From the NCBI GenBank assembly GCA_944331865.1, contig CALVIZ010000001.1, forward strand, positions 18,766 through 82,765: a DNA stretch of 64,000 nucleotides. The letters run 5' to 3'. How positions within the stretch are numbered: position 1 is the stretch's first letter; every line of letters begins with the position of its first letter. The stretch is from an uncultured Bacilli bacterium. Its GTDB lineage: Bacteria > Bacillota_I > Bacilli_A > RF39 > UBA660. A program made the translations under genes and the position numbers. Shown here in pieces: positions 38,814 to 48,335 of the stretch. The notes below the pieces were generated by a model. That model saw nothing but the letters and a program-made list of their open reading frames with translations, was not told the origin of the DNA and ran no database searches.

Positions 38814-38874
38814 TTGGAGAGTTTATATACTCCCATTATATTGATTATTTTTGGTGTGTAATAATCTATTAATG

Positions 38875-38905
38875 AAAGGTGTCCTTGTTATGTGACACCT
38901 TTTTT
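38875..38905 (+). terminator. hairpin upstream of the recombinase gene
   Basis: AAAGGTGTC-10 nt-GACACCTTT followed by TTT. Confidence 0.45.
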
Positions 38906-38944
38906 GGTGTATTCATTACCATAAAAGAAAGGAGCATGATAAAT

Positions 38945-40765
38945 ATGGATAATGAAAGAAAAATTGCGGGTGTTTATATTCGTGTTTCAACAGAAGATCA
39001 AGCAAGAGAAGGATTCTCACTTGGAGAACAAGAAGAAAAATTATTAGCATTATGTAAGTTTAAAGATTTAGAAGTTTATAAGGTCTACAAAGATGCAGGA
39101 ATATCTGCTAAAGATATGGAACATAGACCACAATTTCAAGAAATGCTAAAAGATATGAAAAATGGAAAAATTAATTATATTGTTGCTTATAAACTTGATA
39201 GAATTACTCGTTCAGTTCGTGATTTAGAAGAATTAATATCTGTTTTAGAGCAATATAATTGCTTTCTACTATGTGATAGAGATGATGTTAATACATCTAC
39301 TGCGAATGGTAGATTCTTTGTAAGAATGCTTACAGTTTTATCTCAATTAGAAATTGAAATAGTTAGTGAAAGAACTAAATTTGGATTAAATGGAGCCATA
39401 AAATCAGGGCATATTCCAGGACAACGACCATTTGGATATAAAAGTGCTGATGATAAAAAAATGATTATTGATAATGCTACTAGACCATATGTAGAAAAGA
39501 TATTTGATATGTATTTAGAAGGAAAAAGTTTTCAGCAAATTGCCAATTATTTTGAAGAAAATAATATCTATCCTAATAAGAAATGGAAGGATACTACTAT
39601 TCAAAAAATAATTGATAATAAAATTTATATGGGAGATTATGAACAATATAAGCGAATTGGAAAACAAGAAAATTTAGAACCTATTGTTTATATGAATGTT
39701 GTAGAACCTATTATCTCTCGTGCTAAATGGGAAGAATGTCAAAGACAAAAAGAAAGAAATCAAAGAACTTATACTAGAGATAGGATTTATACTTTCTTTC
39801 AAAGATTAAAATGTCCAAATTGTAGTCGCATTATGAAGTGTAAAGGTTCTGGTGGTGCCAAAAGAAAGTATATGTATTACACTTGTGAACATTGTCATAT
39901 TAACTTCAATGAAAATTATGTCGAACTATTATTAAAAGATTTTATTTACGATTTATTAGAATATGATATGGCCGTTAAAAAGTTTTTCTTACCAGTTTTA
40001 GAAGATAAATCTAATAATATTGATACAAGCACTATTGATAAAGAGATTCGAGAATTGCAAAAACAAAGAGATAGAATTAAGCAAGCATATATAAAAGGTA
40101 TTGTTGAAATTGATGATTTTAAAGAAGATTATAAACTTATCGAAGATAAACTTGCTAATCTTGAAACAAAAAAACTAGAGTTAATTAATTTAGAAAATTT
40201 TAATTATTCACCACACGAATTACTTGCAGAAAGAGATTTAGAAAAAGAAAAAATGATAAGACTTGATACTTTAAATTCATTATTAAAATCAAAATGGAAT
40301 GTTATGGATAAGTCTGAAAAACAAGAATTTATTTCTAAATTTATTGATACTATCGAAATAAAGAAAGATAATAAAGGAAATTTAATTCTTGAAAAAATTA
40401 ATTTTAGAAATGGATTTGTTAATCAATTATTAAAGTTTTATGATGTAGGAATATTTGATGTTGCAGTACCTGTTATGATTAATAATGAAGAAAATTATAT
40501 TAAAGGTAGCAGAATGAATGAAGAACAACTAAATAAATATTTATCTAAAATGAATGAACATTTTGAAACATCTTTTTATGAAATGTATGAAAATGTTGAT
40601 ACTGAAACTGATGAAATAACTTTTGAATATCAACCAAAAATTGATGAAAAAATTATAAGATTTGTAGCATTAACTAATACAAATGGTTTTCCAATATCAA
40701 AAGAAAATATTAAAGACAGATATGGAATTGTAAGTTATAAACCAAATAAATTATTAGAAAATTAG
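38945..40765 (+). CDS. large serine recombinase (TnpX-like)
   Basis: '[21 protein letters not shown]' (catalytic Ser), 'YKLDRITRS', recombinase domain, Cys-rich zinc ribbon 'CPNCSR...CEHC', C-terminal coiled coil. Start is the ATG at 38945, 10 nt after AAAGGAG. Confidence 0.85.
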
Positions 40766-40783
40766 AAAGGAATTGATTAAATT

Positions 40784-41137
40784 ATGAATATTAAATATAT
40801 ACAAGTAGGAGATTATTTATTACCAAACTTAATAATAAAAAAAGAAACTTTTCAGCAAATTGGAAAGTACGGTTATTTAAGATTAAATTATATTAAGAAA
40901 TATAAAAAAGGATTATATCAATCATTATTAATGAAAAACGAATTAACAAAACATCTTCTTTCAGTCAGTAATGAATGTGAAGAAAGATTAAATGAATTAA
41001 TGGATAATTATATTAAAATTGATGAAAGACTATCTGAAAAAAATAAGGAAATAAATCAAATTGAATGGGTAAAATTGATGAATAATTACAAAAATATGGC
41101 TGAAGAAATTATATTAAAGGAGTTAATCTATGTTTGA
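40784..41137 (+). CDS. tnpV: TnpV-family transposon protein
   Basis: 117 aa. 'YIQVGDYLLPNL...GKYGYLRLNYIKKYKKGLYQSLLMKNELTKHL...WVKLMNNYKNMAEEIILKELIY' matches the TnpV pattern of Tn4451-type elements as I recall it. Confidence 0.7.
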   Translation: MNIKYIQVGDYLLPNLIIKKETFQQIGKYGYLRLNYIKKYKKGLYQSLLMKNELTKHLLSVSNECEERLNELMDNYIKIDERLSEKNKEINQIEWVKLMNNYKNMAEEIILKELIYV

Positions 41138-45893: not shown

Positions 45894-45994
45894 TACACCT
45901 CCCAAACAAGAACATTATAACTAATAAAATTATACTATAAAACCGCTAATTATTCTAGATTTTCCCAAATATTTATAAAAAAAGATGGTAAAAG

Positions 45995-46003
45995 TGATAT
46001 AAT
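45995..46003 (+). promoter_or_regulatory. extended -10 element (TGaTATAAT) for the AAA_13 ATPase gene
   Basis: TG at 45995-45996 and TATAAT at 45998-46003, about 32 nt upstream of the ATG at 46035. No good -35 element. Confidence 0.35.
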
Positions 46004-46034
46004 ATTATGCAAACAACTTTTGGGCGGTGATAGT

Positions 46035-48224
46035 ATGAAATTCGAGTTTTTTAATTATGAAACAAAGAAAAAAATTAACTTTGAAACAGAAAAACATTTA
46101 ATAGCAATATATGGTAAAAATGGTAGTGGTAAAACGACATTTAGTAGAATTAATTTATTTGATAGTAAATATGTATTTAACGAGGATTTTATATATTCTA
46201 ATGTTTTTAATGTATCAGAAAAAGGATTTACTCAAACATCCATAACTAAAGAAAATTTTTCTGGTTTATGGTTAGGAGAAAATATTGTTAAAATTAGACA
46301 AGAAATTTCAAAAATTAGAGAACAGGAAAAAGAAATAAAGGAAAATTATCAGCAAATAGCAAGTAAATATGTAAAATTTTTTTCTGAACAAGGTATCCCA
46401 TTTAATTACGAGCAAAAAACAAAAGAAATTAAAAATGATAACTTCAATTTAACTGATGAAGATATTACTGTTCAAGCAAGCAAGTACATTGCTTCTTACA
46501 CATTTAAGACAGATATCAAAAATAAAACTGAACTAAAAGAAAAAATTAATTATTTAAAGAAAAATGATATATATAATAATTTGATTTTAAAAATACAAAA
46601 TAATAAATTATTAAGTGAATTACTATTAAAAGAGAAAAATAATTATGTTACTATTTTAAATAAGAGAATTGATATACTAAAAAAGAACCAAGAAATAATA
46701 AAGAAAACAGAAAATATATTTAAAGAAGATGAAATAACTGATGATATTAAAATAAAAGTACATGAATGGTATTTAATACACGAAAATAAAGATCATTGCA
46801 TTTTTTGCGGAAATAAAAATATAAATGATTCGTTAGAAAAGTGGAAAACAGTATTTACTAATACAAATATAATAGAAAAACAAGATATTATTAAAGATTT
46901 GGATAATATAATAGATGATTGTACTAAAATTGTAAATGAAAAAATATACAAATCAGTAGATGAAGAAATAATTGATTACATAAATACTATAACTGAAAAA
47001 ATTAAAATAGCAAAATCTATGATTGAAATAGGAATTTATGAAAATATTAATTTTGATTTAAATATAAAAAATATTAAAATAATAGAGATAAGGGAGTTAA
47101 CAAATAATATTATTAATTATTCCATGAATCTATCAATTAATAGTATAGAATTTTATTATAATGCCCAATTATATAACGAGAATTTAAGAAAAACTAAAAC
47201 TAATGAATTAGATAAATTAATGGATACTGAGGGAGAAATAATTGCTAGAAATATTAATGATATATTTAAGAATTTAGGGTTAAACAAAAATATAAATATT
47301 ACTGTTGATAAACACTCTGTTCCACATAAATTTGCTTATAGTATTACAAATCATAAGGATGTCAATGAGTTGAGTGATGGTCAAAAGCATAAATTAGCAC
47401 TTGCGATTTTTATAAATTCTATAATAAATGATGATTTAACAAATAAGGTAATTGTTATAGACGATCCTGTTGTTTCATTAGATATTTCAAGTTATATATT
47501 GTTTAAACAATTTCTTGTTTCAGAATTAATAAAAGAAAAATTTAAGGATTCAACTAAACTAATATTGTTAACACATGACATTACTTATCTTTACATTCAA
47601 CTTTCAAATATTTTTAATGATAATAATATGAAAAATGATACTTGTGTGTATAAGTTATCTAGTGACAAAATTTCTGAAATACCAATTGATTATATTAAAA
47701 CTGATGATATATCATTATTTAAATTAGCACTTTCAAAATGTTCAAATATTCAAGAATTAAAAAGTTTAAATGTAATAACTAATAAAATTTTTAGAATAAT
47801 TATTGATATACGATTAAGATTTTATGGAATATCTGATACTTCTGAAGTTGGTCATCAATTACTACCTATTGATAATGACAAAAAAGAACTGCTACAAACA
47901 TACAGCAATCATTTATCTAAAGTATCGAGACAAAATAATCCGATATTATGTGATATATATAATAGTATTTTATACATTAAAAACACTGCCGAATTATTTG
48001 GAATTAATGATTTTATTAGCAATAAAGAACTAAATAACATAAAAAATATTATTAGCAACAACATAAATGGAAATATTAGTGATGATATTTTCAATGTAAT
48101 TAATTCAATAAGCAGTTTCTTAAAGAAAACAACAAATAAAGAAATGAAAGGATATGTAGAACATACACGTGTTTCTTATACAAGAAATTTAATAGGTTTA
48201 AGTTTAGATGACTTTTTTGAATAA
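46035..48224 (+). CDS. AAA_13-type ABC ATPase with long coiled-coil insert and CxxC motif (PrrC/RloC-like putative anticodon-nuclease defence protein)
   Basis: Walker A 'GKNGSGKTTF', then about 410 aa of K/E/I/N-rich helical insert containing 'DHCIFCGNK'. Signature 'LSDGQKHKLALA', Walker B 'VIVIDDPVVSLD', 'LLTHD'. About 230 aa C-terminal domain of unknown fold. Start is the ATG at 46035 after GGCGGTGA. Confidence 0.6.
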   Translation: MKFEFFNYETKKKINFETEKHLIAIYGKNGSGKTTFSRINLFDSKYVFNEDFIYSNVFNVSEKGFTQTSITKENFSGLWLGENIVKIRQEISKIREQEKEIKENYQQIASKYVKFFSEQGIPFNYEQKTKEIKNDNFNLTDEDITVQASKYIASYTFKTDIKNKTELKEKINYLKKNDIYNNLILKIQNNKLLSELLLKEKNNYVTILNKRIDILKKNQEIIKKTENIFKEDEITDDIKIKVHEWYLIHENKDHCIFCGNKNINDSLEKWKTVFTNTNIIEKQDIIKDLDNIIDDCTKIVNEKIYKSVDEEIIDYINTITEKIKIAKSMIEIGIYENINFDLNIKNIKIIEIRELTNNIINYSMNLSINSIEFYYNAQLYNENLRKTKTNELDKLMDTEGEIIARNINDIFKNLGLNKNINITVDKHSVPHKFAYSITNHKDVNELSDGQKHKLALAIFINSIINDDLTNKVIVIDDPVVSLDISSYILFKQFLVSELIKEKFKDSTKLILLTHDITYLYIQLSNIFNDNNMKNDTCVYKLSSDKISEIPIDYIKTDDISLFKLALSKCSNIQELKSLNVITNKIFRIIIDIRLRFYGISDTSEVGHQLLPIDNDKKELLQTYSNHLSKVSRQNNPILCDIYNSILYIKNTAELFGINDFISNKELNNIKNIISNNINGNISDDIFNVINSISSFLKKTTNKEMKGYVEHTRVSYTRNLIGLSLDDFFE

Positions 48225-48335
48225 TGTCTATTGATTTTTAAATGTTTATCATATATAATTTATTTAGTTGATTTAATCCATCTTGGGAGTGTAATTTTTC
48301 TTATACGTGTATAGTTAAGGCTCCATTTAAAAATA

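Follow-up and report, generated by a model that had tools for sequence, protein, structure and literature searches.

The window analysed here, 64,000 nt of an uncultured Bacilli bacterium (contig CALVIZ010000001.1 of assembly GCA_944331865.1, positions 18,766 to 82,765), in all likelihood contains a 9,877-bp integrative mobilizable element (IME) that was recombined by its own large serine recombinase into the 3' end of a tRNA-Gly(GCC) gene and that carries a relaxase gene and defence cargo. Comparison with related contigs reveals the exact borders of the element, its empty site, a near-identical copy in a different context, at least five other elements that take up this site in other strains, and a target specificity that extends to the entire family.

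Borders, empty sites and alternative occupants

The element occupies window positions 38450-48326 and is bounded on both sides by the 7-bp direct repeat GCTCCAT, which consists of the last 6 bases of the tRNA followed by T. In two loci of the same species (L255 and L258; L numbers designate the contig loci compared), found by exact-protein look-up of the 48-aa NUDIX fragment, tRNA-Gly(GCC) is joined directly to the right-flank hairpin, with one copy of the repeat: ...CACTT-GCTCCAT-TTAAAAATAAC... or, in longer form, ...GATCCTCCTCACTT-GCTCCAT-TTAAAAATAACTTACGAAC... Both loci retain the entire left flank and the entire right flank, and the extent of the element and its flanking repeats follow from the two BLAST segments of L258 (window positions 49661-48320 and 38449-30561), which have precisely these 7 nt in common.

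The original prediction, made by a model from the sequence alone, placed a Tn4451-like mobilisable transposon at 38815-48310 and proposed a search for an empty site in relatives, which exists in L255 and L258. Its left border has to be moved by about 370 bp further left, to 38443-38450, and the 90-aa open reading frame (ORF) that it left outside the block belongs to the element and is also present in L006 and L007. The flanking genes were correctly recognized as LtaS and tRNA-Gly on the left and, on the right, a NUDIX pseudogene (PF00293 at 2e-7 for the manually spliced translation of its three frame fragments); the terminator assigned to the tRNA itself (38487-38513) is, however, element DNA. 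The right-flank hairpin (48327-48375) indeed lies outside the element and is the tRNA terminator in the empty site, but it resembles the left end of a related family of elements (see below).

Look-up of the 90-aa ORF identified two further copies, in L007 (99.96% identical) and L006 (99.3%), where the same element lies between two other elements. The match to the window runs from 38443 to a few dozen bases past 48326, where the hairpin is similar, and the outer flanks differ. Two more loci, L002 and L004, found by look-up of the 449-aa protein of the right flank, share this flank at 99.9% identity and depart from the window just left of the GCTCCAT at 48320. Exact-protein look-ups of LtaS and of the LCP protein returned the window's own contig alone.

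Within the species, the state of the site could be compared between loci with flanks 98-99.8% identical. The site is empty in L255 and L258 and holds the present element in the window, L001 and L252. In L251/L256, it is occupied by a 5,849-bp element with a different recombinase, in L254 by a decayed relative of 5,429 bp with neither recombinase nor TnpV, and in L257/L259 by an element with a 43% identical recombinase and a HinfI-type restriction system; L253 and L002/L004 hold at least two further inserts. The right junction GCTCCAT-TTAAAAATA is common to all these occupants (L251/L256, L253, L254, L257/L259 and L002/L004). In L254, GCTCCA is followed by one base at the left junction and by another at the right and, given that the identity is limited to 6 bp, the crossover must lie inside GCTCCA.

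Thus, one chromosomal site in one species is either empty or taken by at least six different occupants, a case of strain-to-strain shuffling of defence cargo that involves FokI-like and HinfI-like restriction systems, RloC-like ATPases and immunity proteins. The cargo of the other occupants (L257/L259, L251, L253) is likewise of a defence or immunity type, with the HinfI-type restriction system accompanied by an 8xMP protein, with SdpI and PAP2 proteins, and with a protein of the Imm33 type, suggesting that the tRNA-Gly site is a hot spot for defence and immunity genes.

Target specificity and the wider family

The core that consists of a small ORF (sORF), the recombinase and TnpV is present in more than 200 public contigs, at the GCTCCA end of tRNA-Gly, tRNA-Thr or another such element, in the latter case forming a tandem array. 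The left end of the element's own clade, GCTCCANAAGGTAAAATCGTCGCAC, occurs in at least 119 metagenome contigs. Among the 119 matches listed, 58 directly follow a tRNA (Gly-TCC 42, Thr-CGT 9, Gly-GCC 6, Gly-CCC 1) and 55 follow the right ends of other elements; the core is conserved in these matches, with identities of 80-98% for the sORF, 60-88% for the recombinase and 60-73% for TnpV. At the right end of this clade, approximately 70 nt are conserved in 30 relatives, and the sequence after GCTCCA is variable, being either a left end of the family or an unrelated terminator.

The sequence immediately to the right of the island, starting GCTCCATTTNAAAANAACTTACG, is also widespread: it occurs in at least 119 contigs from genomes that represent species in GTDB, all of them metagenome-assembled genomes (MAGs) of low-GC Bacilli, Clostridia or "Tenericutes". 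Among the matches listed, the hairpin directly follows a tRNA in 73 of 119 (Gly-TCC 39, Gly-GCC 20, Gly-CCC 3, Thr-CGT 8, Thr-GGT 3); the remaining 46 copies are preceded by another element's right end, with partial tRNA 3' fragments in a few cases. In 63 of the 101 informative cases, it leads into a 95-aa ORF (beginning MLEF), a 596-aa serine recombinase and TnpV; in the other 38, the hairpin stands without the 95-aa ORF, as it does in the window. The recombinase of these MLEF-type elements is 28-30% identical to that of the window, and the 95-aa ORF is 31% identical to the 90-aa ORF. Because the hairpin leads into such an ORF-recombinase-TnpV module, it represents the left end of a sister clade. 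The resident copy at 48327-48375, which is there in the empty site as well, is either what remains of an old MLEF-type element or a landing pad that has been conserved. The hairpin (TTTRAAAAYAACTTACGRAC...GTTCGTRAGTT; loci L009-L127) is a multi-copy sequence, with several copies per MAG.

A more distant relative (L018, oriented), with a recombinase 40% identical to that of the window, follows a tRNA (at about -3200) that ends in GCACCA rather than GCTCCA. If the position of the crossover is shared across the family, it would therefore lie in the CC or the CA of the CCA end.

These elements may constitute an undescribed superfamily of integrative islands in low-GC gut Bacillota, with an sORF, large serine recombinase and TnpV core, that targets the CCA-proximal GCTCCA of tRNA-Gly and tRNA-Thr genes, imitates the T-loop in its attP arms, stacks in tandem and trades defence and immunity cargo, although our confidence in this generalization falls somewhat short of even. 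The family was not found in the literature searched on TnpV, serine recombinases and tRNA targets, coverage of which is incomplete.

A model for integration

We propose that the attachment site of the element (attP) consists of the right-end arm, GCTCCA(T) and the left-end arm, and would recombine with the 3' end of tRNA-Gly(GCC), with predicted joints ...TATAGTTAAGGCTCCATAAGGTAAAATCG... for attP and ...CACTTGCTCCATTTAAAAATAAC... for attB. The serine recombinase is the presumed catalyst. Crossover within GCTCCA would regenerate the tRNA and leave the element flanked by GCTCCAT; in the opposite direction, the element would be excised as a circle. Reading inward from the tRNA, the element would deliver a replacement tRNA terminator followed by the sORF, recombinase, TnpV, relaxase with a candidate origin of transfer (oriT) hairpin, and cargo. 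Given the lack of conservation in the downstream arm, recognition appears to depend mostly on the arm contributed by the tRNA. Newcomers would therefore insert next to the tRNA and shift older elements outward, which would explain the arrays: related elements that use the same target probably stack beside the tRNA.

The structure of the attachment sites lends support to the recombinase, which is intact, as the catalyst. In complete MLEF-type elements (3.4-6.5 kb), attP contains a 14-bp imperfect inverted repeat, AGTTCGTAACTTGT / ACAACTTACGGACT, with its axis of symmetry at the CT of GCTCCA; its span of about 50 bp is typical of the attP of serine integrases. Furthermore, the T-loop GTTC is located at -18 in 75 of 84 distinct tRNA arms and GTT is located at -22 in 39 of 73 distinct right-end arms of elements, suggesting that the element arms mimic the T-loop at a distance from the core that is greater by 4 bp. 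A similar outward shift, of 5 bp in attP relative to attB, has been reported for the zinc-ribbon-domain motif (Rutherford et al., PMC3783163), and the resemblance is suggestive.

Several observations weigh against this model or parts of it. The offset between the arms is 4 bp compared to the published 5 bp (PMC3783163), and inspection of the attP of the element's own clade detected no convincing outer inverted repeat, only the inner TTAAGG/TTATGG symmetry. The circular (attP) joint GTATAGTTAAGGCTCCATAAGGTAAAATCG, a check proposed in the original prediction, yielded 0 matches in the assembled metagenome and viral contig collections. The GC content of the element (0.241) does not differ from that of the rest of the window (0.2375); of the composition skew that had also been suggested, only unusual tetranucleotide usage (about 3 sd above other windows) was observed, which is weak support. 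A promoter scan found 90 sites compared to 95 expected, no enrichment over chance, and the promoter calls mentioned below accordingly carry no weight. Finally, most relatives lack a relaxase, so that mobilisation is not a trait of the family. The attachment sites are defined well enough for direct recombination tests.

Alternative explanations

The element could instead be a passive cassette, in which case whole inserts would be exchanged after DNA uptake by homologous recombination between the flanks (that is, within the conserved tRNA and hairpin) and the recombinase would be inactive or irrelevant. Identical flanks in all occupants, the failure to find a circular form in contig collections and the decay of some relatives (L254, without recombinase and TnpV, and many contigs with the sORF but no recombinase) are all compatible with such exchange, which nevertheless appears improbable given that the 99.96% identical copy in L007 has different flanks and is cut exactly at GCTCCA, that all genes of the element are intact, and that hundreds of insertions of the family, located after different tRNAs in different species, share only 6-7 bp at the junction.

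Membership in the Tn4451/Tn4453 family of mobilisable transposons, as in the original prediction, would entail a TnpX-type resolvase with low target specificity and TnpZ-type mobilisation. As a proxy for this type, we used the element on Salmonella plasmid CP123681, which encodes TnpV, aac/aph, Mob_Pre, TnpW and a recombinase with DUF4368. The overall logic is the same, namely, a large serine recombinase gene followed by tnpV, an own mobilisation gene and accessory cargo, with no conjugation pore genes, and the TnpV of the window is 46.7% identical to that of the proxy. However, over an alignment of 374 aa, the recombinase of the element shows only 23% identity to that of the proxy, in which DUF4368 and Zn_ribbon_recom are found. 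Given this low identity and the domains identified by Pfam in the enzyme of the element (Resolvase and Recombinase, without DUF4368), the latter is not of the TnpX type. The relaxase is of the MobA/VirD2 type (PF03432), whereas TnpZ of Tn4451 and the relaxase of the proxy belong to the MobV/Mob_Pre family (PF01076 in the proxy), and neither TnpW nor TnpY is present. The more than 200 insertions of the family are all at GCTCCA ends, a strict tRNA 3'-end target with a 6-7 bp core, in contrast to the low specificity, 2-bp core and MobV relaxase of Tn4451 (Guédon et al., PMC5704250). This derivation is already contradicted and we regard it as very improbable. Because the recombinase, the relaxase family and the target specificity all differ, we classify the element, on the strength of its sequence, as an IME that is not a member of the Tn4451 family and shares TnpV alone with it.

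The least credible alternative is that the borders enclose only a portion of something larger, be it a prophage, a satellite or a composite island: accessory-looking genes (Fic protein, acyltransferase and the 449-aa protein without a family match) are located in the right flank, and the right-flank hairpin resembles a left end of the family, but the empty sites retain both flanks whole, genes for phage structure or replication are absent, matches in PHROGs are limited to families of unknown function (strong for TnpV, weak for the AAA_13 ATPase), and a rightward extension is rejected by the flanks of L255/L258 together with the lack, in the window, of a further GCTCCA junction with element-like arms.

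Gene content and control sequences of the mobility module

All the genes listed in the original prediction, namely, the recombinase, TnpV, relaxase, FokI-like restriction-modification (R-M) system and AAA_13 ATPase, were recovered in the ORF listing and by Pfam search, along with the YIRVSTEDQ catalytic motif, the relaxase His motif and the perfect 9-bp hairpin (Table 1). The properties of an IME that were found include an intact recombinase gene, GCTCCAT at both ends, empty sites in relatives and an own relaxase, with no coupling or type IV secretion match and with the oriT represented by a candidate only (41159-41185). The description of this locus as an excisable, mobilisable defence island holds with respect to an integrative element with its own recombinase, relaxase and defence cargo; we infer excision and mobilisation, the latter through the relaxase by a co-resident conjugative element.

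Table 1. Features of the element and its attachment sites (window coordinates)
Feature	Position	Strand	Evidence and comments
tRNA-Gly(GCC)	38374..38448	+	Integration target, B arm of attL, intact after insertion; ARAGORN; Rfam RF00005, 58 bits
Left GCTCCAT copy (attL core)	38443..38449	+	Last 6 nt of tRNA plus T; single copy in L255/L258
Left-end arm (P'), AAGGTAAAATCGTCGCAC...	38450..38513	+	Present in L006/L007 without upstream tRNA; same left end in at least 119 metagenome contigs
Terminator hairpin, element-borne	38487-38513	+	Now ends the tRNA transcript
90-aa ORF	38541..38813	+	Conserved, upstream of recombinase; called as gene in L006 and L007
Recombinase control region	38816..38892	+	Operator-like motif GGAGAGTTTATATACTCCCA (38816-38835) overlapping promoter-like site, then leader hairpin
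Leader hairpin AAAGGTGTC...GACACCTTT	38865-38895	+	Perfect 9-bp stem, then six T; read from sequence
Large serine recombinase, 606 aa	38945..40765	+	Pfam Resolvase PF00239, 7e-34; Recombinase PF07508, 6e-21
TnpV homologue, 117 aa	40784..41137	+	PF14198, 1.7e-31, full length
Perfect 9-bp inverted repeat GGATTTATA/TATAAATCC	41159..41185	+	9-nt loop containing TATACTCCCA
MobA/VirD2-type relaxase, 434 aa	41212..42516	+	PF03432, 1e-36; HQNTNHIHNH and N-terminal Tyr
FokI-like type IIS restriction endonuclease	42535..44301	-	FokI D1, D2, D3 and cleavage domains (Pfam); PADLOC REase_II, 1e-169
D12-class N6-adenine methyltransferase	44294..45196	-	PF02086, 6e-38; matches C-terminal half of fused 646-aa methyltransferase model
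N6_N4-class methyltransferase	45186..45905	-	PF01555, 3e-48
AAA_13 ATPase, RloC-like architecture, 729 aa	46035..48224	+	PF13166, 5e-16; PADLOC PDC-S06
Right-end arm (P)	48231..48319	+	Promoter-like TTGATT-17-TATAAT (outward), inverted TACACTCCCA, then ...TACGTGTATAGTTAAG beside core
Right GCTCCAT copy (attR core)	48320..48326	+	Junction comparison with empty sites
Resident hairpin TTAAAAATAACTTACGAAC...GTTCGTAAGTT (B' arm)	48327..48375	+	Outside element; in L255/L258

The start of the recombinase, the sole recombinase in the element, is set at the ATG at 38945 on the basis of gene calls on sister contigs. Its matches in PDB are the catalytic domain of the TP901-1 integrase and other serine recombinases, and its best NCBIfam matches are CcrB and XisF, both under their cut-offs. 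A CPNC...CEHC motif and a K/E-rich helical stretch are visible, and the Pfam Zn_ribbon_recom match falls short of E 0.01. The 90-aa ORF encoded upstream has no family match in Pfam, NCBIfam, PHROG or PADLOC, and its 532 homologous protein clusters are all hypothetical; it is a candidate regulator or directionality factor. Its predicted structure, mostly beta, was not used for a fold search because the model is poor (mean predicted local distance difference test score, pLDDT, of 60.9) and the alignment is shallow (74-92% identity). The relaxase shows additional weak NCBIfam matches to SAG1250 and TraI_MobP relaxases, and none of the eight element proteins matches a type IV secretion system or type IV coupling protein family in Pfam or NCBIfam.

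The motif GGAGAGTTTATATACTCCCA upstream of the recombinase is invariant and occupies the same position in more than 40 relatives. The leader hairpin that lies between the promoter region and the start codon of the recombinase is conserved in the relative L249 and could be an attenuator of recombinase expression. The hairpin upstream of the relaxase is a candidate oriT or operator.

The inverted motif that had been noticed near both ends corresponds to TAYACTCCCA, which occurs 3 times in the window (38826+, 41164+ and 48284-), each time within the element, compared to 0.1 expected occurrences. The copies are located before the recombinase (38816-38835), within the hairpin loop that precedes the relaxase gene (41164-41173) and, inverted, near the right end (48284-48293). 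The same motif is found ahead of an outward TTGAAA-17-TATAAT at the right ends of MLEF-type elements. TAYACTCCCA is a probable operator site of a conserved protein of the element.

The outward TTGATT-17-TATAAT at 48231-48259 is about 60 nt from the right end, with the TATAAT kept in 30 of 30 right ends of the clade. In the circular form, this promoter-like site would point across the joint to the sORF and the recombinase, with the left-end terminator intervening.

The flanks show some variation of their own. Approximately 340 bp, including an 81-aa ORF, that are located between the 449-aa gene and the NUDIX pseudogene in L251, L253-L257 and L259 (most other contigs of the species) are missing at window position ~48880-48888, as they are in L258. 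The 449-aa protein itself (48922-50271, minus strand) is conserved across the strains, and comparison with Pfam, NCBIfam, PADLOC and PHROGs yielded nothing for it. Further away, at ~26300-29000 (L008 12954-15727), this genome (24% GC) encodes proteins with dockerin- and cohesin-like domains, with 81-bp internal repeats at 27312-27493; a gene cluster for cell-wall glycosylation is located upstream of them.

Cargo

The cargo, which we take to function in phage defence, consists of a type IIS R-M system that is complete at the level of recognizable domains and an adjacent ATPase. As originally predicted, the restriction enzyme is FokI-like; it contains all four FokI domains and is accompanied by two methyltransferases. 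Similarly to the FokI/StsI-type IIS R-M systems, two adenine methyltransferase activities are represented, but here these reside in two separate proteins.

The assignment of the ATPase as PrrC/RloC-like holds for its architecture, which includes Walker A at 27, a CxxC insert (CIFC) at 255, the signature LSDGQ at 446 and Walker B (VIVIDD) at 472. The only triad-like motif found in the C-terminal part is, however, a variant, R587-x3-D591-x34-H626, which departs from the Arg-X3-Glu-X36-52-His rule for RloC (PMC2610378). Searches of PDB and plasmids with this protein returned generic ABC ATPase matches and nothing more specific.

In the relative L112, a restriction system 98-99% identical to that of the element is present, and the slot of the ATPase (46035-48224 in the window; 4021-7094 in L112, oriented) contains a paralogue, 25% identical, with the canonical triad R-x3-E-x48-SH. 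Next to this paralogue is an additional 305-aa gene without a family match. Because two different RloC-like genes share the slot beside the same R-M system, the gene arrangement suggests that the RloC-like ATPase is functionally linked to the restriction system. The known linkage of PrrC and RloC is with type I or type III systems (PMC2610378), in contrast to the type IIS system here.

Comparison with known systems

The nearest precedents for this mode of integration are the Dehalococcoides ssrA islands, with their CcrB-like recombinase (DsiB, PMC3146451), and a small minority of tycheposons. With these islands and the staphylococcal cassette chromosome (SCC; CcrAB/CcrC), the element shares a large serine recombinase, the sparing of the 3' end of a housekeeping gene, tandem pile-up and short direct repeats, and CcrB is the best NCBIfam match of its recombinase, albeit far below the cut-off. 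The differences involve the target, which is the CCA end of tRNA-Gly or tRNA-Thr rather than rlmH or the tmRNA gene, the single recombinase instead of a pair, with the 90-aa ORF and TnpV as its partners, and the repeat of 6-7 bp versus 18-20 bp.

The tRNA islands of tyrosine integrases (Islander/TIGER type) and the tycheposons resemble the present family in integrating at tRNA 3' ends such that the gene is restored, in forming hot spots and in building tandem arrays. The enzyme here is, however, a serine recombinase and the restored tRNA segment is only 6 nt. Among tycheposon-type elements, 27 of 937 have a serine recombinase (bioRxiv 10.1101/2020.12.28.424599). According to the Islander study, tRNA genes were not among the known targets of serine integrases (PMC4383910), and site-specific IMEs with serine recombinases have been described as inserting inside genes (Guédon et al., PMC5704250); the reviews leave tRNA genes to tyrosine integrases (PMC4383910, PMC5704250). 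Here, the target of an entire family of serine recombinases appears to be the final 6 nt of genes for tRNA-Gly and tRNA-Thr, with regeneration of the tRNA.

Serine integrases are valued because short att sites suffice and no host factors are needed. If the superfamily proposed above is real, it would provide a natural set of such enzymes with a near-universal, gene-sparing landing site and would end the rule of thumb that tyrosine integrases alone use tRNA genes.

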